From: Promethearchaeota archaeon
GTDB lineage: Archaea; Asgardarchaeota; Lokiarchaeia; Sigyniarchaeales; SOKP01
NCBI GenBank assembly: GCA_048941285.1
Contig: JBHLNS010000027.1
Location: 12,211 to 46,620, forward strand
Direction of reading: 5' to 3'
Length of the DNA stretch: 34,410 nt
The notes below the pieces were generated by a model. It was not told where the DNA came from. It did not search any database and was given only the letters and a program-made list of their open reading frames with translations. The position numbers and the translations under genes were made by a program. The stretch's first letter is position 1. Every line of letters begins with the position of its first letter. This document shows positions 13,952-34,410 of the stretch, in pieces.

Positions 13952-14854
13952 ATGTTAAATCTAGAAATTGAACAAAAAGAAATCCAAGTAGCTAGTGTAA
14001 CTTTTGGTGGACAGCCAGGAAAAAATCCAATTGTAATGATAGCAACAGTATTTTATGCAAAACATGCTGCCTTATTAGATGAAAGAACAGGAAAATTTGA
14101 TAAAGTTATTCTTGAAAAGGAATTAAATGATTTTACAGAAGTTATTGAAGATACGAGCTTACAAGGAGTAATAGATATCGTTGGGGCATATCCAGATGCA
14201 CTTCTAAAAGAGTGTGAATATATTGCGGATAACGTGGAATACCCATTTTTAGTAGATGGTTTGAACGATATGTCTCGAATTCCTGCTATGAAGGGATTGG
14301 GAGAAATGGGTTTATTAGATAGAGCAATATTAAATAGTATTGATGAAAACACAACTAATGAAAATTTGGAAAAACTGAAAGAGATTGGTGTAAAGAATGC
14401 CGTACTATTAACATTTGGAAATAAATATATTTTTCCACAACAAAAATTAAACTTCTTAAACGAAACATTAATTCCTAAAGCTGAGAAGGCAAATATCGAA
14501 AATTACATTGTTGATACTGCTGTTTTAGATTTACCTTCGATTTCTATCAATTTTGAGACAACAGGGCTCATTAAAAAAGAATTAGGATTACCAACTGGCT
14601 TTGCTCCTGCCAACGCGATATATGGATGGAATTTTATTAAAAAATATGGTGAAGTTGCTCGATGTGGAGCAATTGCTTCTATAATGACTTATTGCGCTGC
14701 TGCTCCGAGTGATTTTATTTTGTTTGGGCCAATAAAATTTGCAAAATGTGTGGTACCTGCAATATCTTTAATTTCAGGGGTAAATTCTTATTACCAGAAA
14801 AGAGTTAAAAGAAATATAATATCTGAAAAAAATCCCTTACAAGTTATTTTTTAA
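13952..14854 (+). CDS. mtrH: MtrH-like (tetrahydromethanopterin/corrinoid methyltransferase subunit H family) protein, stand-alone
   Basis: FGGQPGKNP.VMIATVFY..H, GKFDK, PFLVDG, DRAILNSI, IVDTAVLD, GLPTGFAPANA, DFILFGPI. No other mtr subunits in the window. Confidence 0.85.
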   Translation: MLNLEIEQKEIQVASVTFGGQPGKNPIVMIATVFYAKHAALLDERTGKFDKVILEKELNDFTEVIEDTSLQGVIDIVGAYPDALLKECEYIADNVEYPFLVDGLNDMSRIPAMKGLGEMGLLDRAILNSIDENTTNENLEKLKEIGVKNAVLLTFGNKYIFPQQKLNFLNETLIPKAEKANIENYIVDTAVLDLPSISINFETTGLIKKELGLPTGFAPANAIYGWNFIKKYGEVARCGAIASIMTYCAAAPSDFILFGPIKFAKCVVPAISLISGVNSYYQKRVKRNIISEKNPLQVIF

Positions 14855-16353
14855 GCGATATACCTTAATAATAAATCTTGAGTGTAATTTATAAAGTTTG
14901 ATAATTCCTTCTTGATTTTTTCTTTTTTATTTTCATTATCCACTAAAAATAAAAAGAACATAATATTGTCTTCTAATTGAATTCTTTGAAAAATTATTAT
15001 TGAATTAGCTACCTTAAATACGGCTTCATCTTGCTTTAATGCTTTGAATTTTGCAAAGATTTTAAATAACACGGCAAATTGAGGTGCTGAAACTTCAAAA
15101 ACATTAATAACATCTGATTTTGGAATCTTTGTTAATTCCATTGCTTGATTATTGTAATAATCAGCAAGAACTAACCCATCAACACTTAATAATTGTGTCA
15201 AATAGGTACCTGTTATTAATGAAAAGTTTTTCAAATTATGATTTATCAGATCTCTATTTGGACTTAATTTTGAGATCCCTGAAGAAAATGCGCGTAAAAT
15301 AGTAAAAATCTCAAAAATTGTTGTTATATAAATTTCAATAGGTCGATTTTGGTTAATCTCTTTCAACTTATTTTCAATATATTGAATGTTATCTCGAATT
15401 TCTTTTGAATTTAAGATATCTGAATCTCCTTTTGATAAAATGTAGATAATGGGTGTATTTTGATTGAATTCTTTTATAACACTATTTAAATTTTGAAGAT
15501 AATCAATGCTTTCATCAAATCTAGATTTATTTTTAATATCTATAAAGTAAAACATTAAATCAGCTTCGTATAAATAAATTTCTGCTTTATCTATATATTT
15601 CTCTCTAAATTTTTTTTGTCCGCCTAAATCCCATAGAAATATTGTTGCTCCCAATGCCTCGATAGACTTAATGCTTGCTCCTGCTGTTGGTTTGAGTCCA
15701 ATTAATTTACTATATTTACGATCTACTGAAAGTAGAAAACTAGTTTTACCTGAATCATCCAATCCTGCAAATAAGATTTTCATCTTTCTATGTGTTGTAA
15801 TCGGTGTAGAAGGGTTTTGTTCAATTTCAATTATTTTAGAGAGAAGATCTTTGAAGAATTTTTCAACATCTTCACGTGGAGGATATAATTTACTTATTTC
15901 TTCATCAAATTTTGTAAAAAATTCTAAAACAACAGGTTTAATTCGATTTATGTTATTATATAAAAAGCTACGTTTATTTTCTTCTACTAGTATTGAAAAA
16001 GCTGTCGCGACAGCATTTTTTTCAGAATTTGTTCGAATAAAATGGAAATAAGTAAGAGAGGTTGTGTTAAAATCAGGATAAGGTAATATTGCAAAATATT
16101 GGATTTTTTTAAGATCTTTTTCTTCACTGATTATTTTATCACTGATAAACAGACTTAAGTTTTTAATGGAAATCTGAGTTATATCTCTATATGATAAAAT
16201 TAGTTCATCTTGTTTCTTTTGATCTATAGGAAGCTCCTTTAACTCTTTCTCGCTAATATAATTCGGAAAGCAGTAGATTGGCGTTGGGCCAAGCTCACCA
16301 TATACACTAAAAACAAAACCCTTAACAATTGAAGATTTTAGTAATTCTTCCAT
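14851..16353 (-). CDS. uDENN/longin + Arf/Rag-like small GTPase + roadblock-like domain protein
   Basis: N-terminal GELGPTP and ILPYP; GTPase GLDDSGKTS, KPTAG, WDLGGQ, SKGD, TTIFE; C-terminal LSPNRDLI..L..F..LLSVDGLVLA roadblock pattern. Collinear with 24363..25826. Confidence 0.88.
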   Translation of the reverse strand: MEELLKSSIVKGFVFSVYGELGPTPIYCFPNYISEKELKELPIDQKKQDELILSYRDITQISIKNLSLFISDKIISEEKDLKKIQYFAILPYPDFNTTSLTYFHFIRTNSEKNAVATAFSILVEENKRSFLYNNINRIKPVVLEFFTKFDEEISKLYPPREDVEKFFKDLLSKIIEIEQNPSTPITTHRKMKILFAGLDDSGKTSFLLSVDRKYSKLIGLKPTAGASIKSIEALGATIFLWDLGGQKKFREKYIDKAEIYLYEADLMFYFIDIKNKSRFDESIDYLQNLNSVIKEFNQNTPIIYILSKGDSDILNSKEIRDNIQYIENKLKEINQNRPIEIYITTIFEIFTILRAFSSGISKLSPNRDLINHNLKNFSLITGTYLTQLLSVDGLVLADYYNNQAMELTKIPKSDVINVFEVSAPQFAVLFKIFAKFKALKQDEAVFKVANSIIIFQRIQLEDNIMFFLFLVDNENKKEKIKKELSNFINYTQDLLLRYIA

Positions 16354-16446
16354 GCTAGTAATTTGCTAATTATGAATTTTCACTAATAAATATCTTAATT
16401 TAATTTAAGTAAAGTTAATTATTAATAGCTTTATATTTAAATATAG

Positions 16447-17409: not shown

Positions 17410-17487
17410 TTATTTTTAATAAAAATATTATCATAATTCTTAGCTAAAATTATTTTAAAATAATTAATAAAAAGGAGTCAGAATCTT

Positions 17488-18027
17488 ATGAGTGCTGATT
17501 TTAAAAAAAAAATTAATGGTGTAGTTAGTGTAATAGGGGCAAGTGAAATTGATAAAGACATGAGAAATAAAAGTATTGAAATTGGACGATTAATCGCAAA
17601 AAATAATTATGCGATTGCATGTGGAGGTCTTTCAGGAGTAATGGAAGCAGTATGTAAAGGAGCAAAAGAAGAGGGAGGCTTTACTATAGGCATAATTCCT
17701 TTTGTAGAAAAATCAGCCGCAAATAAATATATAGATCTAGTTATTCCTTGCCCATTTTCTCAAGCGAGAAATATTGTTGTTGTTTTAGCAGGAGATGTGT
17801 GTTTAGCTATAGGAGGTAAAGCTGGTACTTTATCTGAGATTTCATTTGCCTGGATTTACCAAAAACCCATTATCGCATTAACAGATGTTGATGGATGGTC
17901 TTCTAAAATTGCTAACCAAAAACTAGATGATCGAAGACAAGATATGATTTATGGGGTGAAAACTCCAAAAGAAGCAATCGAAAAAATAATGGAACTGCAA
18001 AAAAAATTATCAAATTTGAAAAAGTGA
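17488..18027 (+). CDS. LOG family (TIGR00725-type Rossmann-fold) protein
   Basis: CGGLSGVMEAVCKGA..GG.TIGIIP, ARNIVVV, AIGGKAGTLSEI. Confidence 0.9.
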   Translation: MSADFKKKINGVVSVIGASEIDKDMRNKSIEIGRLIAKNNYAIACGGLSGVMEAVCKGAKEEGGFTIGIIPFVEKSAANKYIDLVIPCPFSQARNIVVVLAGDVCLAIGGKAGTLSEISFAWIYQKPIIALTDVDGWSSKIANQKLDDRRQDMIYGVKTPKEAIEKIMELQKKLSNLKK

Positions 18028-18178
18028 AATTAAAGGATGGTTAAACAACTAATTAAAGGTATGAAAAACGACAAATTATGATTCATCGAGTGAAAATTAC
18101 TTAAGATTTAATGAATCTAATAAACCTATTTTTTAAAAATCCAGTAGAAACTAAAAATGTGAGTTTTACAAATTGCTA

Positions 18179-18934
18179 CTAGATTTTCTTTAATCTTAAG
18201 AAGAAATATTCTTCCTCTAATTTTTGGTCAATAATCTTAAAGCCTATATCTTTTATTAATTCAATGAAATATGAGACATCCTGCTCCTTATTCCAGCGTG
18301 TTCCATAACCAGCCACTACTTCCTTATCTTTAATTTGAACTTTATTCAAAATTACATATAATTCTTTTTCTTTATCAATATTTTTTGGAATAATTGGATC
18401 CCAAATTATAAATTCGCCTTTTTTTCTTAAGACCCTGTAAATCTCTTTAAATATTTTTTTATGATCACTTTTAGGCATATACATAATTGAGAAGAATGCT
18501 GTTATAGTATCAAAAGTGTTATCAAGGAATTTTAAATCCTTGGCATCCATAATTATTTTAAGACTTTCAGAATCACCTGCCTCAAGAGCCTCTTCAAGTT
18601 CACTTTTTCTTAAATCTATTGATATAACAGAGTCTCCTTTCAATTGACCTATTATTCCTTCTCCCCCGCCACCTATGTCTAGAATTCTCCCATCTAACTT
18701 TATATTATTTAGATTAATTCCTTGAGGATGTGTAAAAAAAATATTTATCCCTTTTTTCTTGCTAACAAATGCTTCAATTTCAACCTTAGTTGCATGCCAC
18801 ACTTCCTCAATTTTTTTACCATTTAATTCTCCGGTCTCTAAATGATTTCTTATGGTATCTTCAGTTTCTCCACTTGTGAAGATTTCTACAATTTCTACAA
18901 TATCATAATATCTGACATTGTTTATTTCTCTCAT
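18179..18934 (-). CDS. Class I SAM-dependent methyltransferase with N-terminal HTH-like domain
   Basis: ILDIGGGGEG, IDL, MDA.DL.F.D.TFD, EIYRVL...G.F. The N-terminal 60 aa resembles an excisionase/HTH_17 domain. Confidence 0.85.
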   Translation of the reverse strand: MREINNVRYYDIVEIVEIFTSGETEDTIRNHLETGELNGKKIEEVWHATKVEIEAFVSKKKGINIFFTHPQGINLNNIKLDGRILDIGGGGEGIIGQLKGDSVISIDLRKSELEEALEAGDSESLKIIMDAKDLKFLDNTFDTITAFFSIMYMPKSDHKKIFKEIYRVLRKKGEFIIWDPIIPKNIDKEKELYVILNKVQIKDKEVVAGYGTRWNKEQDVSYFIELIKDIGFKIIDQKLEEEYFFLRLKKI

Positions 18935-19088
18935 ATTGAACCTAAAATAAAGTAATTATTTAATTTTTTTATTTACTAACACTTTAATGTATAATGCAAA
19001 ATCTAAATAAATGATGCTATAATTTTTTATCTTACAAAAAGAATATATTTATATACCAATTACTTTTATAACTTTAAATAGGTGAAAT

Positions 19089-20063
19089 TTGACTTTGGAA
19101 AAGGATCTTAAACAATCAATTTTGTATTTGAAAAAGAAAGAACCAGAGGTAGAGGTAGCTCCAAATAAGCTACTTTTCACAGGACTTGATGATGCAGGTA
19201 AAACAAGCATTATTTTAGCACTTCAAAGAGAATTTTCCAAAATTGCTATTTTGTCTCCAACAAGAGGTGCTCAAAGAAGGATATTCGACTTTTTGGGTAA
19301 AGAGATCTCCGAATGGGATTTAGGTGGACAATTAGCTTATCGAATAGCTTATTTGAAAAACCCGGGAAAATATTTTGAAGGAACAGAAATTGCTATATAT
19401 GTAATTGATGTTCAAAATAAACCAAGAATCGCTGAGGCGGTTAGTTATTTTAAAGATGTTATAGACCAATTTAAAAAGTTAGAGATTGAACCACCAATTT
19501 ATGTATTTCTCCATAAATACGATCCTGCTCTTAGGCGGAGCGCTCAAAATGAGATGGAATCTATAGTAATAGATTTAAAAGATCAACTTAGAGCCACTAA
19601 ATATAAAGAAATTTATTATTATGAGACATCTATATATGATTTTGGTTCAATTATTAGTGCTATGTCTGAAATTCTGTTAAGTTTATATCCAAAATCAGAA
19701 TTAATAGAAAAAACTATTGTGGAATTTGCAAAAAAAGTAGATTCAGAAGGAGTTGTTATAATTGATGACAATTCCCTAATAATTGGATCTTACTACAAGG
19801 ATGATGAAACAAAGCACCTCCTGACGGCTAGTACTCCTTATTTTCTCACGCTGAATGATTCATTTCAATATACTGGCGTAGAAGAAAGATATGAGAATAG
19901 AATGATTGTTCAAAGATTTGGGAAAAATTTTATATTTAAACAAATTACGTTAAGGAGAGAATCATCTCCATATTATCTACTGCTTCTTAAAGAGGATCCC
20001 GTCTTTCATAAAGAAGATCTTGAATCTTTTGCAAATCTATTAAAAGAGATTCTTTATAAATAA
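19089..20063 (+). CDS. Rag/Arf-like small GTPase with C-terminal roadblock-like domain
   Basis: GLDDAGKTS, SPTRG, WDLGGQ, HKYD, ETSIYD, then LYPKSELIE..I.EFAKK...GVVIIDDNSLII. TTG start after AGGTGA. Confidence 0.9.
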   Translation: MTLEKDLKQSILYLKKKEPEVEVAPNKLLFTGLDDAGKTSIILALQREFSKIAILSPTRGAQRRIFDFLGKEISEWDLGGQLAYRIAYLKNPGKYFEGTEIAIYVIDVQNKPRIAEAVSYFKDVIDQFKKLEIEPPIYVFLHKYDPALRRSAQNEMESIVIDLKDQLRATKYKEIYYYETSIYDFGSIISAMSEILLSLYPKSELIEKTIVEFAKKVDSEGVVIIDDNSLIIGSYYKDDETKHLLTASTPYFLTLNDSFQYTGVEERYENRMIVQRFGKNFIFKQITLRRESSPYYLLLLKEDPVFHKEDLESFANLLKEILYK

Positions 20064-20255
20064 GATGATTGAATGCTTTTTAAACTTGTTTTAATACGTA
20101 GTATCTTAGTTTTCTTAATACTAACATTATTAAAATTGGATTTTTACTTATATTTTGTGAAATAAAAACGAAATTATATGGTTTTAAAATATATATAATA
20201 AAATAAAACTGAATGAAGAGATCAACCAAAATACTCAAATATTGGAGAAAATAGA

Positions 20256-21320
20256 TTGATTATTTGTCAGAATTGTGGGACTACTAATAATGAAGCAGTA
20301 ACCAATACTTGTAGAACATGTGGAGCATTGTTACCAGTATCTTCTAAGAGTACAAGATCAAGAAGATTAAAAACAGATAAAAAAAAGAAAGAAATCCAAA
20401 AACCGGTTCAACAATCACAATATAACTCTAGTGAATCGGAAGATTTTGGAAAACATAAATTGGAACTACAAGAAATTCCTAAAGAAGATGAGTTAATAAA
20501 TGATAGCGCTGAATTACATGAGATCCCTAAATTATTAGATGAAAAACAAGGAACTAAAGCGTCTTCAGTAAAAGAAGAAGTATCTGTGAAAGTTAAAACG
20601 GAAATCTTACAAGAAATTCCCGCTCAACCCTTTAGAGGAACCATTATGGACTCCCGTAATAGCTTTCAACCTCTATCTCACTCAACAAACTCTATTTCAG
20701 ATGCTTTTATGGAACTTAAAAGTTCAGTTCTAAAGGATCAAGAGAAGAGACAATCTGTTTCATTACCACCCATTTCCTCGGAGAAAACCGAAACTGATGA
20801 TTCTGTTTTAAGACAGAAACAATTAGAAAAAGATATGACTAAAGTATTAAGTTTTCTTTCAAAAAAGATTTCGGTAAAAAAATTAGAAATTCCTGAGCTT
20901 GAGGAAACTGAGAAATTAAAGCAAAAAGAAGATATACCTCCTTCTAGCATGAATGAAATTTTAAAAAGATTGATCTCAATAGATTTGAATATCGAAGCTT
21001 CAGCAATTATTAAAACGGATGGGACAATACTAGCTTCAGCAATATCAAGTAGGATTTCAGATTCCTTATTTGCAACAATAGCTATGAATCTATCAATGAT
21101 GGGTTCAGATATAATTGAAGGGTTAGATGCAGGTAAATTAAAATCAATTTGCGTTCGTGGTTCTGAAGGAATTTTAGACCTCGCCCCTATAGATAAAGAA
21201 AACCCAATTGCTAAAGATATGATTTTAGTAATACTCAGTCATCCAAAAACTAAGAGTGGAATTATATCATTTGCAGTTAACATCGTCAAAAAACAATTAA
21301 AAGAATATTTTGGTTCATAA
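20256..21320 (+). CDS. Zinc-ribbon + disordered linker + Roadblock/LC7 domain protein
   Basis: CQNC...CRTC at the N-terminus; C-terminal IEASAIIKTDGTILASAI...I.VRGSEG..GII roadblock signature. TTG start after GGAG. Confidence 0.88.
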   Translation: MIICQNCGTTNNEAVTNTCRTCGALLPVSSKSTRSRRLKTDKKKKEIQKPVQQSQYNSSESEDFGKHKLELQEIPKEDELINDSAELHEIPKLLDEKQGTKASSVKEEVSVKVKTEILQEIPAQPFRGTIMDSRNSFQPLSHSTNSISDAFMELKSSVLKDQEKRQSVSLPPISSEKTETDDSVLRQKQLEKDMTKVLSFLSKKISVKKLEIPELEETEKLKQKEDIPPSSMNEILKRLISIDLNIEASAIIKTDGTILASAISSRISDSLFATIAMNLSMMGSDIIEGLDAGKLKSICVRGSEGILDLAPIDKENPIAKDMILVILSHPKTKSGIISFAVNIVKKQLKEYFGS

Positions 21321-21347
21321 AAATAAAGACTTTAGCAAAAAAAAGTT

Positions 21348-22142
21348 TTATAATATTTTTTTTTGCATGCTTACTTTATTAATTTTAATAAATCTGAAAT
21401 ATGCTAAATTATTGTGTAATTCTTGTAAAAATGAATTCAATTCATATATAGAAACCAAAGGAATTTGATTATTATTAATTTTAGAGCTATTGTCTTCAAA
21501 AGTGACAATTGCTGGGATTAAAAAAAATGGTAATCGTTTTTTTATATCACTTTTTATGCCTATTGAATCTTGAATCATTCTTGAAAAGACTTCAGGATTT
21601 TTTTTCAACGCAACAGCTCTTCTATACTGCAAATCTGCTGCTTTATTGATAGAACTAAAAGAATCTTTGCGTTTCCACTGTTTTGCATCAATAAGTAGCA
21701 CATACTTTAAATCAATCCCAATAATATCAATTTCATATTTTTTTTGAGTAGTTTTGGATTTAAAATTGGATTTATCTGAGAATCTGAAATTTTTTAAGGT
21801 TTTGTAATTATTTATTGAAAGAATTTCTTGTATTAAGGCTTCAAACCCATCATAATTTAATAATTCAGAAAGATATCTGATATCCCGTTTTAAAACATTG
21901 ATACTGTTTATTATAAAAAGTATTTTATTAATTACAATATAGTTTTGATAATTGCCTTTCTGAAGTGATATAAAGTTAAATTCGTCTAAGAAATTTCTTA
22001 ACTCAATACCACTAAATTGATTAAAGAAGGGAATTTCTGAGATCTCCCACCATACTTCGGTAATGTTCGTCTCAGTTTCTCTTAAGATATAATAGATTTC
22101 ATTATAAAATTGCTTTACAGATAACTGAGTTTTGATCTTCAT
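21348..22142 (-). CDS. PD-(D/E)xK restriction-endonuclease-like protein (Mrr/NERD-like)
   Basis: FEALIQEIL, EIDIIG, IDAKQWK catalytic pattern. Confidence 0.75.
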   Translation of the reverse strand: MKIKTQLSVKQFYNEIYYILRETETNITEVWWEISEIPFFNQFSGIELRNFLDEFNFISLQKGNYQNYIVINKILFIINSINVLKRDIRYLSELLNYDGFEALIQEILSINNYKTLKNFRFSDKSNFKSKTTQKKYEIDIIGIDLKYVLLIDAKQWKRKDSFSSINKAADLQYRRAVALKKNPEVFSRMIQDSIGIKSDIKKRLPFFLIPAIVTFEDNSSKINNNQIPLVSIYELNSFLQELHNNLAYFRFIKINKVSMQKKIL

Positions 22143-22401
22143 AATTATAACTAAATATTGATGTTAAAATAAAATAGTGAGACTAATAGAATTCTGAAGA
22201 ATTTTTAAAAAATAAAAATAGGGCATTTTTTAATGATAATTAACACCCTAAGCTTTAGTGATAAACAACAAATTTAGGGTATTTTACTAGTTATAAATGC
22301 TATCTTTATTTTTTATGATATTTTACGATGTAATCAGTTAATAATTTTGTTTTTTAACTTTTAGAAATATTATTACTCAAGTTTAATCAAAAAAAAAGTA
22401 A

Positions 22402-24216
22402 ATGAAAACTTTCATGGATTTATTACCAAAAGTATTTAGAACTGAAGGGACTATAGCAGATTTTGATCCTAATAAAATTTACGTAAGTATTTTAAAAGAA
22501 ACAGGAATGAGTGAAGAAGATGCTAAGAGTATAACAGAAATTGTAGTCAGAAGAATAATAAGCTCGGGGATCAAATTTTTATCTGGTCCTCATATAAGAG
22601 AAATAGTTTGTTCTATTCTTTCAGAAGAGCATTTTGAAAATGAACGTAAATTGTATACAAGAATAGGAATGCCATTAATGGATTATGAAGAAATTCTTGA
22701 AAAAAGTCCAATAGAAGACCTTTATAAGTTGGTAAATCCAGAAAAAATACATCATTGGGCTGGGAATAAAATCGCTGAGGAATACGCACATTTAAGAATA
22801 TTAAATAATGAAGAATCTAAAGCTCATCTTGCCGGTGATATTCATATTAATGGTTTAAATTATTTTGTTCTACGACCATTTATTCAAATATGGGATCCTC
22901 GACTTATTTTGAAAAATGGACTACCACCAATGAAAACACTGAAAGGATATTATAAATATAGTCCTGCAAAAAATCTTAAATCAGCTTTATATCAATTAGC
23001 TAAATGGTTAGAGATGATTCAAGCAGAATTTTATGGATACCAAGGTTTTAATTTTATTAATACATTCTTAGCGCCATATTTATCCGAATTAAATGAAAAT
23101 GAGATATCAAAAGATATTAAGAGTTTTATTTATGAAAACAATTTATTATCTCTTTCAATCGGGCGCGAAGTACCCCCAATATCGATAATATCAACAATAA
23201 CTGTTCCTAAAGAACTTATAAATACTCCAGCAGTAACTCTGAGTGGTAAAACTAAAAATATTTATGGAAATTTTCAAAACCAATGCACTCAATTTTTCAA
23301 AACTATATTCCTAATCTTTAAAAGTATTTATGAGAAAAATCCTCTTCTTTCTTTACCAAAACATTACATCTTATTGAATCCCGAGTTTTTCGATTTAATT
23401 GAAGGTTTAATTCCCAAATTCTGGGACGATATTGAGTTGCTATCTTCCGCTTACTTTATGAATCTTAATCCCAATTCCTATAAATTTAAAGCCTTAGCAG
23501 ATTTAAATAAAGAAACGTATCAAAATTTTGGTATACTTCAAAATATCAGTCTAAATTTACCCAGATATGCGTTCTCTACTAAGGATGAAGACAAGTTTTT
23601 AGAATTATTAGGATTAAAATTAGATTTATGCTCCAATATTTTGCTTAAGAAATATGACATAATAAAGAAAAGAATTGATTCAAAACATTTACCACTTTGT
23701 GGTACAATTGTTGAAGGAGAACAATTATTTAAATTGCATAATCAAGGTTTATCTGTAAGTTTAGTAGGGTTAAATGAAGCAATTAAATATATAACAGATT
23801 ATGATCTGCATGAAAGCATAGATATAATTAATTTTGGTAGGAAAATATTAAATGAAATTAATCAATTGTGCTTAGAATATTCCAATAATAATAATAAAAT
23901 CTTTTTACTTAGTGAAAACCTTTCAGAAAAAGCTATTAACAGATTTACTAATTCAGATTTAAAACAATTTCCAGATAAAGTAAGATATGTCGCCAATAAT
24001 AGAAATTATACCAACTCTGTTAATCTTCGTGAAGGTTTATCTATAGATGTATTAGAAAGAGTTAAAATTCAGGAGAATTTTCATGAATTCATACATGAGG
24101 GAGCAACTATTAATATTTCTTTGACGGAATTAAAAAGAAACGGCCTAACTATTAAAGATTTTTTAACAAAAATTTCTAAGGAATCAAGGATATCAAATTT
24201 AAAATTTTATTCTTAA
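22402..24216 (+). CDS. ATP-cone + degenerate class III ribonucleotide reductase (NrdD)-like protein
   Basis: ATP-cone VFRTEG...FDPNKI...L.GPHIREIV; AH.AGDIHI.GL; GQG-like YGYQGF..NTFLAPY; SLNLPR; VGLNEA; YTNS; HEG. Lacks catalytic cysteines and the C-terminal glycyl-radical domain. Confidence 0.82.
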   Translation: MKTFMDLLPKVFRTEGTIADFDPNKIYVSILKETGMSEEDAKSITEIVVRRIISSGIKFLSGPHIREIVCSILSEEHFENERKLYTRIGMPLMDYEEILEKSPIEDLYKLVNPEKIHHWAGNKIAEEYAHLRILNNEESKAHLAGDIHINGLNYFVLRPFIQIWDPRLILKNGLPPMKTLKGYYKYSPAKNLKSALYQLAKWLEMIQAEFYGYQGFNFINTFLAPYLSELNENEISKDIKSFIYENNLLSLSIGREVPPISIISTITVPKELINTPAVTLSGKTKNIYGNFQNQCTQFFKTIFLIFKSIYEKNPLLSLPKHYILLNPEFFDLIEGLIPKFWDDIELLSSAYFMNLNPNSYKFKALADLNKETYQNFGILQNISLNLPRYAFSTKDEDKFLELLGLKLDLCSNILLKKYDIIKKRIDSKHLPLCGTIVEGEQLFKLHNQGLSVSLVGLNEAIKYITDYDLHESIDIINFGRKILNEINQLCLEYSNNNNKIFLLSENLSEKAINRFTNSDLKQFPDKVRYVANNRNYTNSVNLREGLSIDVLERVKIQENFHEFIHEGATINISLTELKRNGLTIKDFLTKISKESRISNLKFYS

Positions 24217-24362
24217 ATGAAATAAATGCTATAGTAAAAAAAGTATTTAATAAGAATGACTTTTTTGAATATAGTAATACTAGGATTTTATAATATTTTA
24301 AAATTAAAAAGCTATTTAACTTTAATTAGATAAGAATTTCCTAAAAATTTAATGGGGATTGC

Positions 24363-25826
24363 TTGACAAAAAAAAAAGAAAAGCAAAATAAAGAAAAGCC
24401 ACCAACGGAAGAAACAACAGAGAGCAAAATGAATATTATTAGTGCAGTAGTTTTAAGCATATTCGATGAAAATGGCCCAACACCAAAAATTTTTTGGCCT
24501 GATGATTTAGATGAACAAGCTGGGCTTTTAATTGCTATGAAAACCATTAGTTTATTAATGGGAGATGCAACTTACCAAGATGGAATAGGAACAGAAGGAG
24601 TTAACTATTTTGGAATATTACCTTTCCCTGATTTAAAGTTAAATGGATTGACTTACTTCTTCTTAATTCCTGATGATAGTGCGCGTGGAAAAGCTTTAGC
24701 GGCTACAATAACAGTATTAATTGATGAAAACAACAAGGTGTTCTTCTATGAAAACATGAAGTATTTAAGAGTTATAATGGATAAAGCAGCTACTCAAATT
24801 CAATATAATAAAGATAATGATGAAAGAGAAATCATTATTGATGAACTTCGTGGAGAACTCATGGAGTTTACCAAAGAATTAAAAGATCCTTTCTCTACAA
24901 AAAGACAATTGAAGATCTTGCTAACTGGACTGGATAAAGCAGGAAAGACGAGTTTTATGTTGGGAATAAAACGAAAATATTCAGAAATTATAAAATCTAT
25001 GCCAACTAAAGGGGTTGATAGAACAGAAGAGAATATTTTCGATGAACAAAATTCACAAATTTCTGTATGGGATTTAGGAGGCCAAGAAAAATATAGAGAA
25101 AGATATCTCGAGCAAAGTGAAGTGTATTTATACAATATAGATTTAATGTTTTTTTTCATTGATATTCAAGATATAGAAAGAATTGAGGAAGCACTTGGCT
25201 TATTTAGAAGGCTTTTGAAAATTTTGGTAGAATTAGATGAATTTCCTCCAATCGTTGTTTGTCTTAATAAATTCGATCCGGATCTTAAGGGTTCTGAGGA
25301 AATCTTTAAAAATCTAGAAGTAATAGCAGATACGATAAAGGAGAAAGCTGATAGATTCTTTATTAAAATTTTCCAAACAACGATTTTTGATCATTGGAGT
25401 CTTATTTCCGCATATTCATTCGGTTTATCTCAATTAAGCCCTAACCGCGAGTTATTTAGAAATCAATTGAAAAAATTCGCGAAAAAAACCAATTCAGATG
25501 CAATTTTACTACTTAATGAGAACGGTCTAATCTTATCTAATTTTTCAAAGACTGATATTTCTGGAAAACTATTTGAGATAATTGCCCCATATTACAAAAA
25601 TCTCTATAAAACATTCGAGGAATTCAAATTATTAGAACAAGATTTCATTGTGTCTTCTGGAATTGCAGATGAGTCTAAAAAAGTGATTTTTAAGAAAATT
25701 ACTGTCGAAAAATATAATCTATACCTACTTTTATTTTTAGAAAAGTCGTTGGAAATTGAAAAAATTGAAAAAAATTTACCTGAATTTTCAAAAAACATTG
25801 TTGATTTAATTCATACCTATATTTAA
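24363..25826 (+). CDS. uDENN/longin + Arf/Rag-like small GTPase + roadblock-like domain protein
   Basis: SIFDENGPTP..FWP, ILPFP, DDSARG; GTPase GLDKAGKTS, MPTKG, WDLGGQ, NKFD, TTIFD; C-terminal LSPNRELF..LKKFAKK..AILLLNENGLILS. Confidence 0.9.
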   Translation: MTKKKEKQNKEKPPTEETTESKMNIISAVVLSIFDENGPTPKIFWPDDLDEQAGLLIAMKTISLLMGDATYQDGIGTEGVNYFGILPFPDLKLNGLTYFFLIPDDSARGKALAATITVLIDENNKVFFYENMKYLRVIMDKAATQIQYNKDNDEREIIIDELRGELMEFTKELKDPFSTKRQLKILLTGLDKAGKTSFMLGIKRKYSEIIKSMPTKGVDRTEENIFDEQNSQISVWDLGGQEKYRERYLEQSEVYLYNIDLMFFFIDIQDIERIEEALGLFRRLLKILVELDEFPPIVVCLNKFDPDLKGSEEIFKNLEVIADTIKEKADRFFIKIFQTTIFDHWSLISAYSFGLSQLSPNRELFRNQLKKFAKKTNSDAILLLNENGLILSNFSKTDISGKLFEIIAPYYKNLYKTFEEFKLLEQDFIVSSGIADESKKVIFKKITVEKYNLYLLLFLEKSLEIEKIEKNLPEFSKNIVDLIHTYI

Positions 25827-25844
25827 GAAAGAAAAAAAAGAATT

Positions 25845-27134
25845 TTATTTATCGTAATACGGTATTAACTTTTTACCCCCTCTCCGTCGTAATAAAAACA
25901 TCAATGTGGTTATAGCAGCGACTCCTATTATGGTAAAAATAATAAAATAAATCGCTGAGTCAGATAGAGGTCTAAGATCTGTTTCAATAACTGTTATTTC
26001 AATTGAATACTGAAAATCATAAGCAGTATGATCACTACATACAGCAGATGGAACAATAGGAAATTCAGAGACATAATTAAAAGGAGGGGTCGCTCCAGGC
26101 AAATAAAACCATGCACCAACATTTAAATTAAATCTTAAAAAGTCTATTCCATTGAAATATCCTTTTTTCCATGTTGGATCGCAGGCTATCCATCCAATAT
26201 CCGGGACATAATATTCGACCCATGCATGCCCTAAAATTTGATTTGTACTTGATTGGGTTTGAGTTGCTCCTATATAATTAAGGTCAAAGAAATATTTATT
26301 ACCTTCTGCTGGACGATGAGCGGGAATATTTGTAATTAGAAAACCAGTTACTTTTCTTGCGGGAATACTTTGAATTCTTAAGAGAGTAATCATTAGATCA
26401 GAAATATCCGAGCAATCACCTTTTCTTTGAACATATGCTTCATATGCACCTATTTCTTGATTTTGTACCTCATAGTCGATATTTAATGCAATCCAATTGA
26501 ATATTGCCTCTGCTTTATCGACTGGATTGGTTCTAGATCCTACAATGCTATTAGAGAGTGCTCTTAATGTTGGGTGGCTACTATTATAAAAAACTTCAGT
26601 CACATTATATAAAGAATGTATAATGTCCCCAGGATTATAAATTCCATAATCTCCATCATTAATTTCAGTAAAATAGATGTCATTAAGAGTTATATTATAT
26701 TTATAATAAATTGTTATTTTCTCAGAATTACCCAAGGTCACATTAAATAAATCATAAGTGTTATTGAATTTATCTACAAATCCCTCTTTAATTTCATCTC
26801 CATCCCATCTGGAAATATTACTTTCAATACTTTCAAGTTCTTGATAAGGAGGACAGAGAGGAGTTAATGGTGAATTTGGCTGCCGATCAATTAATCTAGC
26901 CACTTTGAAAATATAATTCTGAGGTGGAACTTTAGTGTGCGTAAGACTATAATTCATTTCTACTTGATATTTTACACTCTGGGAAATATTATAATGAGAA
27001 ACTCCATAATCAGGAGCAGATTCTCGGGGAAATAGAGCTATAGTATTAGAAGAAGTGTATGAATATACTCCAATTGAATTAATTGCGGGAAAAAAAAGCA
27101 AAAATAAAAACACGAAAGTTAGTTTAGGTTTCAT
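25845..27134 (-). CDS. Secreted, membrane-anchored transglutaminase-like domain protein
   Basis: Signal peptide; triad motifs GDCSD, HAWVEYY and DPTW; C-terminal TM helix followed by RRR; several NxS/T sequons. Confidence 0.88.
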   Translation of the reverse strand: MKPKLTFVFLFLLFFPAINSIGVYSYTSSNTIALFPRESAPDYGVSHYNISQSVKYQVEMNYSLTHTKVPPQNYIFKVARLIDRQPNSPLTPLCPPYQELESIESNISRWDGDEIKEGFVDKFNNTYDLFNVTLGNSEKITIYYKYNITLNDIYFTEINDGDYGIYNPGDIIHSLYNVTEVFYNSSHPTLRALSNSIVGSRTNPVDKAEAIFNWIALNIDYEVQNQEIGAYEAYVQRKGDCSDISDLMITLLRIQSIPARKVTGFLITNIPAHRPAEGNKYFFDLNYIGATQTQSSTNQILGHAWVEYYVPDIGWIACDPTWKKGYFNGIDFLRFNLNVGAWFYLPGATPPFNYVSEFPIVPSAVCSDHTAYDFQYSIEITVIETDLRPLSDSAIYFIIFTIIGVAAITTLMFLLRRRGGKKLIPYYDK

Positions 27135-27280
27135 TTTAAATTCTTAGAACTTAGAAATTTATTATATTAGAAATAATATTAGCTATTTTTATTTTTAACC
27201 ATTAGAAAATTGTAAAATAAGAATAAAAGAGTGAATTTTTATATTTTTAATATACTTAAAAAATTCTAGTTTCTTGAGCT

Positions 27281-27916
27281 TTGATTTATAAGATATATTT
27301 AATTGATGCTGATAATGGAATATCATTAGTTGAATCCACCTTTAAAGAGTTAAAGAAAGTTCAAGACGACATAATAACAGGATTTTTCAATGCTATTAAT
27401 ACTACAATCGATGTGATTCAAGAGGCTATGGTGAAAGGGAGAAGAGTAAATGAAATGAATAGAGTTCTCCAATCTGAGGATTCAATAGTTTTTATTTATT
27501 ATCATCCTTTATCAAGAATATTATTTTGTTCAATTTCAGATAAAGATGATGACGTTGAAAGAATAGAAAATGTAGTTCATAAAATAGCAAATCGTTTCTG
27601 GAAAAAACATCAATCTGATTTAAAGAATTTTAGAACTACAACAGATAAAAGTAGATTCCAAACGTTAATTGCAGATATCGAAAATCTAACAATAGGAGGA
27701 CGTATAGCAGAAGTTTTTCCAAAATTATTGATTGTTAAAGGCGTTCTGGAAAAGGTTCTTTCTATGGGAATGATCGATGAATTTGATTTACAAGTAGCTT
27801 TACAATGTACTGGAAGCAATTCCCCATTGAAGATTTCAAGGATCTTGAATAAAAAGCAATCAGAAGTAATTACTATATTGAAAAAACTAGAGCAATTTGA
27901 AATTATAAAAATATAA
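27281..27916 (+). CDS. Longin-like domain + winged-helix protein
   Basis: IYLID..NGISL...F...DDIITGFFNAI longin pattern; C-terminal wHTH ..CTG..S..KISRIL......ILKKLEQ..II. TTG start. Confidence 0.75.
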   Translation: MIYKIYLIDADNGISLVESTFKELKKVQDDIITGFFNAINTTIDVIQEAMVKGRRVNEMNRVLQSEDSIVFIYYHPLSRILFCSISDKDDDVERIENVVHKIANRFWKKHQSDLKNFRTTTDKSRFQTLIADIENLTIGGRIAEVFPKLLIVKGVLEKVLSMGMIDEFDLQVALQCTGSNSPLKISRILNKKQSEVITILKKLEQFEIIKI

Positions 27917-30090: not shown

Positions 30091-31743
30091 ATGAAAGAAA
30101 TTACTGATACTCTATCTGTTTTTTTTAATATATTCAGGAATGATGTGCTCGAATTCTTTCAAAAGAGCTATTCTTATTTAAGAGATTTAATTGTATATAA
30201 AAAGATTGATTTAAATGAGAAGATTGAAACAGATAATGAATCTCAGGTAAAGAATAATATCGAAAAAATGTTAAAAGCCATTAAAACAGGTTTAAATACA
30301 ATTGGTATACCTATAGAACAGTTAAACAAAGATCAAAAGAATTTCTTAGAAAAATTTAGTATAGAGAAAGTACAAATCTCTAACTATAATTCTTATTTTG
30401 AGATTTATCTGCAAAACCATGTAAATATTCTATTATTCGAAATATTATTTGATTATCTACTTAATATTGATGAAAAAAAACTAGAGAATGTAAATTTATT
30501 TGATCTATTACCCCCATATTTCCTTTCTAAATTAAATGAATTTAAGAGGAGCCATTTCAGCAATAAAAAAACAGTTGAACTCTTCAAAAAACAAAATTAT
30601 AAGAGTTATATTAATTTCACTGATTTAACAATAATTAAACCCATGTGGGTAGCAGAAGATAATATCTTAGAACAATTAAGGGAAGCAAAAGAGGGTTCTA
30701 TTGAAACTTTAAAAACTAATAAGAGAGAGGGGATAAAACAATCATTTGGAACAATAAGAGAGAAGGAAAATATAGATAAGAAAGCTGTTCAGGTTAATAT
30801 CGGCACAGTTATCACCCAAATTGAACATAATTTAAATATTGTGTTAAACACTAACACTTTCCTTGATTATATTGGAAATTGTGTGCCAATACATCCTAAA
30901 ATAATTAATAAGATTACTATCGATAAATTAAATCTTATAAATTTAAAAGTAGTAAATCGCGATTTTTTTGATTTAGAGAGCCTATTTTATTATATCTCTA
31001 TTCTTAAAATGTTAAATCTTGAATCCCCCTTTAGTCCTACAGAAATTTTAGAAATATTAAAAAATTTTGTACATAGATGGGTATTTAGCTCTTCAATTGA
31101 TAGTGTACCGGATTCGATCAATAATTTTTATGGTCTAGCAATTTTTAATGAAATGGACTTGCTAAACAAAACAAATGTCATTGATCTTCAAGAAATCGAA
31201 AATTTTATAATAAAAGATTTAGAGACGGTTATACCTGAGAAATTAGAATTAAATCTATATTCTCTTTTATGCATGAAATTAATAATAAAAATGCAAAAAA
31301 AAAAATTAGAGAGAAAATTAAATCTGGAACCAATTACTCATCTCAATTTACTTGAGAGGCTAAATTTAAAGCCTACTTTAGACATTTTTAATCATTTATC
31401 ATCTTTAAAGTTATTAGGTAAAGAAGATAACATCAATAATTTAAAAATAACATATACCTATGAGATAAAGAAATTGATTACCTCAAATGGATCCATTAGA
31501 GATTTAGTTACTGAATCAGCAATAGCATTATTGATTTTTGATCTACTCAATTTGAAACAAAATGAACAAGAGCTGTGTAACGATTTATTCAATTTTATTC
31601 TAACTAAAACAAGTTTCTTTAATACCGAAAATCTTAATCCAAAATTTAATTGGCGTAGTGACCTATTAGCTTTTAAAATAGAATTGCAAATGTTATATTG
31701 GGCATTAATGGCGAGTGCTGCATTTATATCTGAAAGTAGTTAG
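30091..31743 (+). CDS. Hypothetical helical protein; C-terminal half weakly resembles prenyltransferase/squalene-cyclase-type alpha-alpha repeats
   Basis: 550 aa ORF with recurring helical motifs (LFYYISILKML, NFYGLAIFNEM, NLYSLLCMKLI, LYWALMA). Confidence 0.6.
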   Translation: MKEITDTLSVFFNIFRNDVLEFFQKSYSYLRDLIVYKKIDLNEKIETDNESQVKNNIEKMLKAIKTGLNTIGIPIEQLNKDQKNFLEKFSIEKVQISNYNSYFEIYLQNHVNILLFEILFDYLLNIDEKKLENVNLFDLLPPYFLSKLNEFKRSHFSNKKTVELFKKQNYKSYINFTDLTIIKPMWVAEDNILEQLREAKEGSIETLKTNKREGIKQSFGTIREKENIDKKAVQVNIGTVITQIEHNLNIVLNTNTFLDYIGNCVPIHPKIINKITIDKLNLINLKVVNRDFFDLESLFYYISILKMLNLESPFSPTEILEILKNFVHRWVFSSSIDSVPDSINNFYGLAIFNEMDLLNKTNVIDLQEIENFIIKDLETVIPEKLELNLYSLLCMKLIIKMQKKKLERKLNLEPITHLNLLERLNLKPTLDIFNHLSSLKLLGKEDNINNLKITYTYEIKKLITSNGSIRDLVTESAIALLIFDLLNLKQNEQELCNDLFNFILTKTSFFNTENLNPKFNWRSDLLAFKIELQMLYWALMASAAFISESS

Positions 31744-32481: not shown

Positions 32482-34410
32482 TTAATTATTTAAAGGTATT
32501 ATTATTTTTTGTTTTATTAAACTCTCTATTGCTTCTATAATTAAATCTTTATTTTCTTCATGAACTAATTCTACGATGTTATTTATATCAGCACTTAAAT
32601 TATCTCTTGACATTGATTGGAGGACATTAACTACTCGCATTTCCATTTTTGTTAAGCGCTTTTCTTTTTTCATTGTAATAAGGTTGACATCACTCGAAAG
32701 GGTAAATGCATCCTTGTAATAGAGTTCAAAATATTCATTTATTATCTGAGGGACTGTTATCTCAAAATCATCCAATGAACCGTCCCAATCTTCTAACTCC
32801 TTAGAAAGTTTTAGGTTAAGAGCCAGAATTAAATTTGAAATTTGATTTTTCATTCTTTCGGAGGATTTTGTTTTTAAAATGAAAACAGTACGAATCTCCC
32901 CAATATCCGCGATTAAGCAATAGAATTGTTTGAAGTCCAATTCAATCATTTTTTCGATACCATAAGCTTTTTCAGAACCAGTTGCTCCTTTTTCTACGAA
33001 TTCTTCACCAATCATTGTGATTGCTTGAATGAATCCCGAAAAGAGTTCTTTCTTATGTTTTTCTAGAATTGAATAACTTTTTGAAAAAAGAGGAATACCA
33101 CTCAACTTATGGATTATAACAACAGCTTGAATATTTTTAAGGTCTTTAAATCTTTGAGTTTTTGCTAATAATTCTGCTTCTTTTTTCCTTCGTATAGGTA
33201 ATAATACATATGATCTTAAGCTTAATGCTGCAAATATCGCTCCGACTCCTATAGATGCAAATAATATAATTAATAACCATAAATTAGGTCCACCTGGATT
33301 TACAGGAGGATTTATTATCTCAAATTGATAAATATGTATTTGTGGTTCATATCCTATAGCAGTAAATTCAAAGATTAATCGATATACACCTGTGTGGCTA
33401 CAAAATACAGTACTGAATTCAATAGCATAAATTCCTTCGGTTAAATCTTGAATTGTATAATAAATAGGATTAGTAATATTTACAGTTACTTGCGCATCAG
33501 GAATTCCCTCATCATCGAATTCTGAATAATATAAAAAACGGATAGTACTATTCTCATTAATTACTATTTTTGAATCAGAGTCTAATCTTTGCAGATTTGT
33601 ATTTTCACCTAAATTTATCAGTAATGTCAAATTACTATCAATAAACCCTATTTTACTTGAGCGAATTATAATATTATATAATCCATAACCTCCTAAATCC
33701 GATGTATCAAGAATACCTTCATATATTCCCAACGCTGCATCTGTTAAATAATTTGTTTCTCCAGTCCAATTATATGATATTATCGCATCTGGGATAGATT
33801 GACCCGTCTCAGCATCCCTAAAATAAACTCTTAATGGAATTATATCTCCAATAGTAGCTCCTGTCTGATTATCTGATTTTGCATCATCTGGTTTTAAAAT
33901 GGTTAAATAACTATCGTGAACAACTATAAAATTAGATCTTAGCCCACCAATAGCAGTTCCGTTGCTCCAAAATATCGTGTAATTATAAATACCCCCTACT
34001 GAATTTTCTGCTGTAAAAATTATATCTGAGAAAACAACGGTTCCGTTTGAAAATGGTGTCTTGGATTCTTGAAGCCAAGTAGTACCATTTGGAAAATAGA
34101 CTGTTAAATCAGCAGTAGTAAAATCTAAATTAGCAGGAATTTCATTTGAATTATTTATTTGTGTTTTGATTTTTGTAAAATCCCCCGTCCTAAATGATGT
34201 TTTTACCCATTTTCCGTCTTTAAACATTTTAGTATTTCTCTCGTCAATATAATTCGGAGATGTGGCTCTAAATGTCCACCATCCGGGAAAAATAGCATTT
34301 GTTTTATTTATTCTCAAATAGGAATCACCAATATCTCCACCTTCAAATGTTATAGATCTAAATGTAGGATCTAAGGCAGAAATGAATTTCCAATTTATGG
34401 GTTTATTTAT
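32482..34410 (-). CDS. Large single-pass membrane protein: beta-rich ectodomain, TM helix, cytoplasmic longin-like + wHTH domains; 5' end outside window
   Basis: The frame stays open from 34317 to the window edge (INKPINWKFISALDPTFRSITFEGGDIGDSYL). Ig-like repeats with G.Y motifs and NxS/T sequons; TM LWLLIILF...; cytoplasmic VVIIHKLSGIPLFSKSY..LFSGFIQAI longin pattern. Confidence 0.85.
   Translation of the reverse strand: MNKPINWKFISALDPTFRSITFEGGDIGDSYLRINKTNAIFPGWWTFRATSPNYIDERNTKMFKDGKWVKTSFRTGDFTKIKTQINNSNEIPANLDFTTADLTVYFPNGTTWLQESKTPFSNGTVVFSDIIFTAENSVGGIYNYTIFWSNGTAIGGLRSNFIVVHDSYLTILKPDDAKSDNQTGATIGDIIPLRVYFRDAETGQSIPDAIISYNWTGETNYLTDAALGIYEGILDTSDLGGYGLYNIIIRSSKIGFIDSNLTLLINLGENTNLQRLDSDSKIVINENSTIRFLYYSEFDDEGIPDAQVTVNITNPIYYTIQDLTEGIYAIEFSTVFCSHTGVYRLIFEFTAIGYEPQIHIYQFEIINPPVNPGGPNLWLLIILFASIGVGAIFAALSLRSYVLLPIRRKKEAELLAKTQRFKDLKNIQAVVIIHKLSGIPLFSKSYSILEKHKKELFSGFIQAITMIGEEFVEKGATGSEKAYGIEKMIELDFKQFYCLIADIGEIRTVFILKTKSSERMKNQISNLILALNLKLSKELEDWDGSLDDFEITVPQIINEYFELYYKDAFTLSSDVNLITMKKEKRLTKMEMRVVNVLQSMSRDNLSADINNIVELVHEENKDLIIEAIESLIKQKIIIPLNN

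Follow-up and report, generated by a model that had tools for sequence, protein, structure and literature searches.

The 34,410-nucleotide stretch of DNA analysed here, called the window throughout, comes from a Promethearchaeota archaeon (GenBank assembly GCA_048941285.1, contig JBHLNS010000027.1, positions 12,211 to 46,620 of the forward strand). One of its genes, referred to below as gene A, encodes a Rag-family small GTPase of an Asgard (Lokiarchaeial-type) archaeon, preceded by a longin domain and followed by a roadblock domain. In eukaryotes, Rag GTPases and longin-containing GTPase-activating proteins (GAPs), such as folliculin (FLCN) and GATOR1, make up a nutrient-sensing switch upstream of TORC1. 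Reading gene A as a single-chain "folliculin-Rag" protein with a putative catalytic Arg, R108, is reasonable. We consider the chances about even that R108 acts as an arginine finger on a Rag-like nucleotide pocket, so that hydrolysis would be an inbuilt property of the switch, gated by the way in which the longin docks.

Gene A is a conserved and genuine gene, correctly described by an earlier account made from the letters and their translations (the sequence-only reading). The two stretches quoted in that account, VVLSIFDENGPTP..WP and TYFFLIPDDSARGKALAATITVL, are present in the protein, and R108 is encoded by CGT at 24684-24686, as had been stated. Its homologs number 558, the best 120 being 71-94% identical. 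The invariance counts given below as 43/43 come from an alignment of the query with 42 of these 120 listed homologs (mean column identity 83%).

The order longin, Rag-like GTPase, roadblock had been proposed from the letters, and Pfam, AlphaFold2 models and Foldseek agree on it. The Pfam family Gtr1_RagA (PF04670) matched residues 184-396 with 88.6 bits (cutoff 22; E 5.6e-25), covering profile positions 1-214 of 232, and ranked above the Arf model (69.7 bits, E 2.7e-19). The GTPase is intact, again as claimed: the nucleotide-binding motifs G1, G3 and G4 and T215 are present (GLDKAGKT 189-196, T215, DLGGQ 237-241, NKFD 302-305), and G189, G194, K195, T215, D237, G240, the catalytic Gln Q241, K303 and D305 are invariant (43/43). 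Residues 362-486 were modelled as helix-strand-strand-helix-strand-strand-strand-helix, which is the roadblock order. Gene A thus shows three traits of the Rag/Gtr family, namely the hidden Markov model (HMM) match, the G motifs with the catalytic Gln, and the C-terminal roadblock. By sequence, the closest solved chains were 8yl2 (E 7.9e-36) and 8zla (5.8e-27), Gtr1/RagA following at about 1e-11, and each of these matches began at query residue 165 or later. The full-length AlphaFold2 model had a predicted local distance difference test score (pLDDT) of 74.6 and a predicted template modelling score (pTM) of 0.74. With this model, Foldseek found 8yl2 (8.7e-20) and RagA (6s6a_A, 9.6e-16), and alignments to RagA, Gtr1 and LokiRagO chains (284-301 residues) ran over 300-315 columns, C-terminal domains included. 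As a rule for GAP action in the Ras superfamily, G domains with a catalytic Gln use an external Arg. Since Q241 is invariant, the G domain of gene A is of that kind.

The candidate source of such an Arg lies in the longin. Folded alone (AlphaFold2, 22-row alignment), this domain gave a pLDDT of 90.3 and a pTM of 0.87, and its elements follow the longin order strand-strand-helix-strand-strand-strand-helix-helix (strands 4-13 and 16-23, helix 29-44, strands 60-66, 71-81 and 89-99 of the model, then helices). Foldseek ranked the lokiarchaeal structure 8yqg first, followed by GATOR1, Lst4, FLCN-FNIP2, SMCR8-C9orf72 and DENND1 entries, which bore out the longin fold put forward in the sequence-only reading. 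VIA, a search independent of Foldseek over 48,161 chains, had 8yqg on top as well (Z 18.9). Next came Lst4 (Z 13.7), C9orf72 (13.2) and an FLCN-complex chain (12.8; root-mean-square deviation (rmsd) 2.5 Å over 132 residues), and lower down a GATOR1 chain (11.7), DENND1A (11.2), SMCR8 (10.6), TRAPP (10.2) and VAMP7 (9.9). On a second look at VIA, ranks 2-18 were all Lst4, FLCN-complex, C9orf72, GATOR1/SEA or DENND1 chains (Z 10.4-13.9), and the SNARE longins (Sec22/Ykt6/VAMP7) started at Z 9.9. Over both VIA looks together, Lst4 reached 13.9, the FLCN-complex chain 8dhb_J 13.5 and GATOR1 chains 12.2-12.3. Subunit names were given to the structure chains by residue ranges, not by the labels of the search tools. 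As modelled, the longin of gene A is closer in fold to GAP longins than to other longins, by a modest margin of 1-4 Z units.

Pfam pointed in the same direction. The Folliculin family (PF11704) matched residues 96-154, from the strand before the Arg loop onward, at E 0.0064, and it was the sole longin-type family matched. Together with the fold ranking, this supports siding the modelled longin with the FLCN/NPRL2/SMCR8 group rather than with SNARE, TRAPP or AP-sigma longins. In the ESM Atlas, the best named match of residues 23-170 scored 0.90 and brought no common Pfam family. At 0.84 there was a cluster with Pfam NPR2 in 19% of its members, which we take as a lead only. Profiles of the longin family, A4, A5 and A6, and the family protein P0221 had a single significant match among PDB sequences, the Loki longin 8yqg. 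A residue-level sequence link from the gene A longin to FLCN/NPRL2/SMCR8 was dropped, no significant alignment having been obtained, and a further profile, A8, was rejected as a bridge to the GAP longins since it included GTPase columns and was swamped by Rab matches.

Two motifs stand out in this longin, a GP hairpin and the loop that bears R108 (Table 1). In the hairpin, F34, D35, G38 and P39 are invariant, and so are A107, R108 and G109 in the loop (43/43 each). The D-x-x-A-R-G pattern of the sequence-only reading held for its ARG part, and it did not hold for its first position, D104 being D or E in most orthologs. When distant family members were aligned (27 sequences), the Arg column was one of only six columns conserved at 90% or more. 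The antiparallel topology of the longin sheet would make the two loops neighbours, so that the GP hairpin and R108 are probably adjacent in space. In the main text of a study of Asgard longins (Traffic 2025, PMC12290439), the GP motif is placed at the start of strand 2 and is described as specific to the GAP longins FLCN, NPRL2, SMCR8 and C9orf72, the DENND-family proteins being without it. By that account it is no general uDENN hallmark, and the uDENN-wide role given to it in the sequence-only reading has to be narrowed to GAP longins. We infer an FLCN-type arginine finger in gene A from the fold class, the position of the motif and its conservation; R108 would then be a putative counterpart of FLCN R164, NPRL2 R78 and SMCR8 R147.

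To place these motifs in a wider family, we made an exhaustive search with residues 23-170, which returned 118 clusters (50% identity) at E <=1e-3. Pfam was run on 116 of them, two giant proteins being excluded. Sixty of the 116 clusters are fused to a GTPase, half of them of Rag/Arf type (30) and half of Ras/Rab type (30). Because the longin is covalently joined to a GTPase in so many clusters, the simplest reading is that the fused GTPase is its partner. The other 56 clusters had no GTPase match and comprise standalone proteins, fragments, a class of proteins some 287 aa long that carry the longin at their C-terminus, and one TrmB fusion. The latter is P0147 (518 aa), where the family longin is combined with a TrmB-type DNA-binding domain (E 1e-12); another unusual member, P0153 (525 aa), combines it with a Ras-like GTPase and a TIR domain (TIR_2 E 7.3e-19). 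Over the 116 clusters, Folliculin was again the only longin-type Pfam family found. It matched 11/116 at E <=1e-3 and passed its cutoff in three (P0184, 27.1 bits; P0202, 24.5; P0221, 28.7).

Motifs were then counted in an HMM alignment of the 116 clusters, considering only those that cover the column in question. The GP motif was present in 89/96 clusters (Rag/Arf-fused 19/19, Ras/Rab-fused 27/30, no GTPase match 43/47). At the R108 column, R was found in 77/106 (16/27, 28/30 and 33/49 for the same three groups), and RG in 69/106 (12/27, 26/30 and 31/49). Among the Rag/Arf-fused clusters, the distribution was sharply divided: RG occurred in 12/12 A-like clusters, down to 32% identity, in 0/13 B-like clusters, named after the paralog described below, and in 0/5 ambiguous ones. 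As read from these sequences, the split of Rag-fused lineages into Arg-bearing and Arg-less ones is old and clean.

These counts bear on two alternatives. One is that the likeness of the loop to that of folliculin is coincidental and that the motif has no particular role, as might be thought from the sub-threshold Folliculin match of gene A. Set against it are the invariance of the motif in 43/43 orthologs and in 12/12 A-like clusters, its conservation in Rab-fused and standalone relatives, and the three relatives that pass the Folliculin cutoff; we regard it as extremely improbable. The other is that R108 is a finger for a separate small GTPase outside the dimer, the fused Rag-like domain serving to regulate or localise the GAP. 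Standalone longins with Arg do exist (33/49 clusters without a GTPase match), and their action must be in trans. Moreover, a search of the genome (3.55 Mb, 101 contigs) gave 17 matches to the gene A protein, five of them within the window, and many are lone GTPases or GTPase-roadblock proteins, so the substrate could be another Rag-, Arf- or Rab-like protein of the genome. The fusion to a GTPase in 60/116 clusters argues the other way, and we hold action on such a separate GTPase to be quite unlikely.

If R108 works on a Rag-like pocket within a dimer, a partner is needed, and the window holds candidates. Paralog B shares 35% identity with residues 56-487 of A and matches Gtr1_RagA at E 1.2e-20; the HMM of the longin family recognises its N-terminus at E 4.5e-40. 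In 21/21 B sequences the GP motif is invariant, whereas the other loop varies and never contains the Arg. In place of the N-K-x-D of A, every B sequence has S/T-K-x-D. In the three most distant B orthologs (L030-L032), G3 reads WDIPGQ or WDIPGK; with WDIPGK, one distant B ortholog lacks the catalytic Gln. B may be a dimer partner of A. Another partner, or a substrate, could be the linked Rag-like protein that has no longin and shares 35% identity with residues 174-463 of A.

We propose that the gene A protein would dimerise via its roadblock domains, as Rags do, and that the longin would dock on the layer formed by the G domains. As an arginine finger, R108 would then reach into a Rag-like nucleotide pocket of the same chain or of the dimer partner. 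GTP hydrolysis would be gated by this docking and not supplied by a separate GAP; because R108 would complete the Rag-like pocket, hydrolysis would be built into the switch. The partner might be another A chain, the Arg-less B or the linked longin-less protein, and a pairing of A with B would mimic the asymmetry of SMCR8-C9orf72 or FLCN-FNIP. A more specific form of the proposal, which we think unlikely, is that A and B make an asymmetric heterodimer, in which a Rag pair held by the roadblocks is capped by one catalytic longin (GP and Arg) and one non-catalytic longin (GP only), with a single arginine finger acting on one of the two G domains. It would be a fused, ancestor-like form of FLCN-FNIP:RagA-RagC or of SMCR8-C9orf72, and the RG split (12/12 versus 0/13) would then date the division between catalytic and non-catalytic longins to before eukaryotes.

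We predicted a complex of A (residues 23-487), B and one GTP. The interaction prediction score from aligned errors (ipSAE) was 0.47, against 0.00 for the best of three controls, and was graded as weak support. In the calibration, the ipSAE mark was reached by 58/80 solved complexes and by 2/110 mismatched pairs; scores of 0.60 or below comprised 7/80 solved complexes and both of the passing mismatches. The A-B prediction departs from this calibration in its custom alignments and its ligand. Between runs, 89% or more of the contacts were the same, and the pLDDT of the partner was at least 76. Because Rag heterodimers have already been solved, the score may reflect likeness to them, and because near relatives of a genuine partner pass as well, it does not separate A-B from A-A.

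Distribution and linkage of A and B were then surveyed in 31 related genomes, the window's own included, counting as A-type the nearly full-length matches of at least 41% identity. A-type orthologs were found in 28/31 genomes and B-type ones, at loci distinct from A, in 23/31. Both were present in 22 genomes, A without B in six, B without A in one, and neither in two. The six genomes in which the gene A query found no B (G001, G020, G021, G023, G025, G027) are 63-97% complete. In a single-contig genome of the same genus (G006, about 90% complete), the gene A query found no A-type ortholog; this genome carries paralog B (80% identical) and a longin-less Rag-like gene. Of 19 genomes of the window's genus, 12 have A and B on a single contig, 5.6-13.5 kb apart, and in 11 of these 12 (the window's own and 10 others) a longin-less Rag-like gene sits between them. 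Spacing was 6-20 kb, on one contig, in 12 further genomes from other genera of the window's family; in another family of the order, A and B were 4 kb apart in one genome and 80 kb apart in another. The linkage is suggestive, and no stronger than that, since gene order is shared among related genomes in any case. Among 151 genomes sampled across the phylum, gene A matches at E <=1e-60 were confined to the window's own family (24/25), one sister family (2/2) and the window's own genome; the 124 genomes sampled from 25 other families had none at this threshold.

Several observations weigh against R108 being a built-in arginine finger. Longins are mostly platforms for guanine nucleotide exchange factors (GEFs) or scaffolds. 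The nearest solved structure, the dimeric 8yqg, has no Arg-Gly, and the Arg is missing in 29/106 clusters of the family. With Folliculin, gene A scores 16.7 bits, short of the 23.3 needed. When profiles of the longin family were run against PDB sequences, neither FLCN nor NPRL2 was listed at E <=10, and SMCR8 appeared only at E 0.29-8.1 (0.29-0.51 with profile A4, 8.1 with A6). The A-B prediction is weakly supported and gives no contacts. An obligate A-B pair is unlikely, because A occurs without detectable B in 6/31 genomes and B without A in a single-contig one. Furthermore, a GAP that is always tethered to its GTPase would have to be gated in some way.

Some of these observations would suit a different role, in which the longin, like the majority of longin and roadblock domains, is a docking platform, a GEF or a dimerisation module and the Arg-Gly is structural or binds a partner without being catalytic. 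As a matter of fact, the model matches longins of TRAPP, Mon1-Ccz1, DENND1 and SNAREs as well (Z 8-11), the closest solved relative is a longin dimer devoid of the Arg, and the clusters that lack it include all 13 B-like Rag-fused ones. Yet the best eukaryotic fold matches are GAP longins and not GEF longins, the Arg column ranks among the family's six best conserved, and the GP motif, found in GAP longins only according to the main text of PMC12290439, is invariant in gene A orthologs. We consider this role somewhat unlikely.

The coordinates of gene A, its parts and related genes are collected in Table 1. The start codon of gene A is TTG. It is supported by the M (MTK...) that most orthologs carry at the aligned position and by a GGGGA located 4 nt upstream, and TTG is plausible as the true start. 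The N-terminal tail is kept in orthologs, its sequence being poorly conserved. Its coding sequence opens with a ten-A run (24367-24378, ACA AAA AAA AAA GAA), and homopolymers of this kind are prone to slippage or length errors. RNA-library contigs from two runs of one study (X10 and X20) align to 25021-25489 at 99% identity or more. This is a weak hint of transcription, because RNA libraries can contain DNA. Over 14000-27200, no RNA contig fell on B, on the longin-less Rag-like gene or on the rest of A, although contigs of this sort cannot show absence.

Table 1. Gene A, its domains and motifs, and related genes of the window (open reading frame, ORF)
Feature	Position in window	Strand	Basis
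Gene A: longin + Rag-like GTPase + roadblock, 487 aa	24363..25826	+	ORF, translation, Pfam, homologs
Lys-rich N-terminal tail, residues 1-22, predicted disordered	24363..24428	+	pLDDT <50 (AlphaFold2 model)
Longin domain, GAP-longin type (as modelled), residues ~24-171	24432..24875	+	AlphaFold2 model, fold searches
GP hairpin F34-D-E-N-G38-P39, between strands 1 and 2	24462..24479	+	Alignment, model
Loop D104-D-S-A-R108-G109, strands 4-5; R108 candidate arginine finger	24672..24689	+	Alignment, model
RagA/Gtr1-type GTPase domain, residues ~181-356	24903..25430	+	Pfam, PDB sequence matches, Foldseek
C-terminal roadblock domain, residues ~362-486	25446..25820	+	Secondary-structure order in model, RagA/Gtr1 alignment
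Paralog B: longin + Rag-like + roadblock, 500 aa, GP kept, no Arg	14851..16353	-	Pfam, HMM, identity to A
Longin-less Rag-like GTPase-roadblock protein, 324 aa	19089..20063	+	Gtr1_RagA E 6.2e-26
Longin-Rab-like genes, tandem, 346 + 351 aa	3503-4543; 4961-6016	-	Pfam Ras E 2.4e-48; 1.5e-45

The longins of the two tandem longin-Rab genes belong to the gene A longin family (E 1.5e-41 and 6.2e-41). One of their loops has an Arg-Gly (NDESRRGG) and the other a Lys at the Arg column (EADRFKGG), and this pair appears to echo the Arg split between A and B. Two further ORFs had looked roadblock/longin-like by eye, one of 354 aa (20256-21320, +) and one of 211 aa (27281-27916, +), and both were placed outside the longin family (HMM E 0.12-0.32; hhalign probability below 1%). 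The only Pfam match of the first was Roadblock/LC7 at E 0.0071, below cutoff; the second had no significant Pfam or NCBIfam match. ORFs 30091-31743 (+, 550 aa) and 32482-34317 (-, 611 aa) had no Pfam match at E <=1e-3. Immediately upstream of gene A, 146 bp away and on the same strand, is a 604-aa anaerobic ribonucleotide reductase-like protein (22402-24216, +; NRDD E 6.4e-58), whose ATP-cone match is sub-threshold (24.8 bits, cutoff 25.8). The remaining window genes are housekeeping ones, including a phosphoenolpyruvate (PEP)-utilising enzyme, TBP, a macro-domain protein, MtrH and this NrdD-like reductase.

What the finding adds is best seen against published work on Asgard longins. Rag-like GTPases with the longin-GTPase-roadblock order have been described from Asgard archaea (Tran 2024, PMC10933270; Liu 2020, preprint 10.1101/2020.10.19.343400), with the same domain order and GTPase class as gene A, so that the sequence-only reading was right in saying that longin-GTPase fusions had already been reported. 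The main texts of both make no mention of the kind of longin, the GP hairpin or an arginine finger (the phrase "arginine finger" occurs 0 times in the text of Tran 2024), and their supplements may show more. The Asgard "FLCN/SMCR8-type" longins of Traffic 2025 (PMC12290439) have the same two motifs as gene A, the GP before strand 2 and the conserved Arg. Among the papers we found, it is the only one that treats Asgard longins with an arginine finger; it reports GAP-type motifs in them and asks which archaeal GTPases they served. The GTPase partner is left open in its main text, whereas the longin of gene A is covalently joined to a Rag-like GTPase. Joining of the longin to a GTPase is absent from that main text (neither "fused" nor "GTPase domain" occurs in it), and the paper's 15 reference proteins (Data S1) may include relatives of gene A. 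The sequence-only reading had seen its potential novelty in the arginine loop preserved in cis. That novelty is largely anticipated by the published motifs, although their fusion to a GTPase goes unmentioned in that main text.

Both the longin-GTPase-roadblock architecture and the GP and Arg motifs of Asgard longins are, in other words, already published. Two points are unstated in the texts compared, and the supplements may hold them: that the longins fused to Rag-like and Rab-like GTPases are those of GAP type with the Arg, and that the Rag-fused proteins form genome-linked Arg-bearing and Arg-less lineages. The gene fusion suggests an answer to the question raised in 2025, since Arg-bearing longins are joined to Rag-like and, in sister families, to Rab-like GTPases. 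If R108 is catalytic, gene A would allow Rag-GAP chemistry to be studied in a compact, tractable protein of 487 residues without accessory subunits, and would represent a plausible early stage of FLCN-Rag regulation. If it is not, the GP and Arg-Gly motifs need another explanation, which bears on how the eukaryotic motifs are read.

Among solved structures, the closest relatives of the GTPase-roadblock part are LokiRagO and LokiRagM from Lokiarchaeota (PDB 8yl2; 8zla, 9m28). Their chains are of 342 and 385 aa and the matches start at query residues 170-180, so they have no N-terminal longin. The closest solved fold to the gene A longin is 8yqg, the dimeric longin domain of a lokiarchaeal Roadblock-Longin protein (rmsd 1.9 Å over 136 residues at the Z given above; profile match E 1.7e-23). 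It keeps the GP as gene A does, and its loop, ENLKEPEK, is without Arg-Gly; unlike in gene A, a roadblock precedes the longin and no GTPase follows it. In the literature searched, we found no paper on PDB 8yl2, 8zla, 9m28 or 8yqg.

The eukaryotic systems FLCN-FNIP2 (acting on RagC), GATOR1 NPRL2-NPRL3 (RagA) and SMCR8-C9orf72 (Arf1) share the longin fold class with A (Z 10.6-13.9). Like A, they also have the GP motif, and one of their longin loops bears a conserved Arg. Arg-bearing and Arg-less paralogs coexist in A and B, as they do in each eukaryotic pair. In the eukaryotic GAPs, however, the longin is followed by a DENN/cDENN region (FLCN, SMCR8) or by an NPRL2-specific C-terminal domain, whereas in gene A it is followed by the GTPase and then the roadblock. 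For this reason gene A is GAP-longin-like at most and no orthologue of FLCN or NPRL2, and its sequence similarity to them is at or below detection. Unlike the eukaryotic complexes, gene A would hold a putative GAP and its substrate in one chain: the family on which the eukaryotic longin GAPs act, a Rag-type GTPase with a roadblock, is here part of the same molecule.

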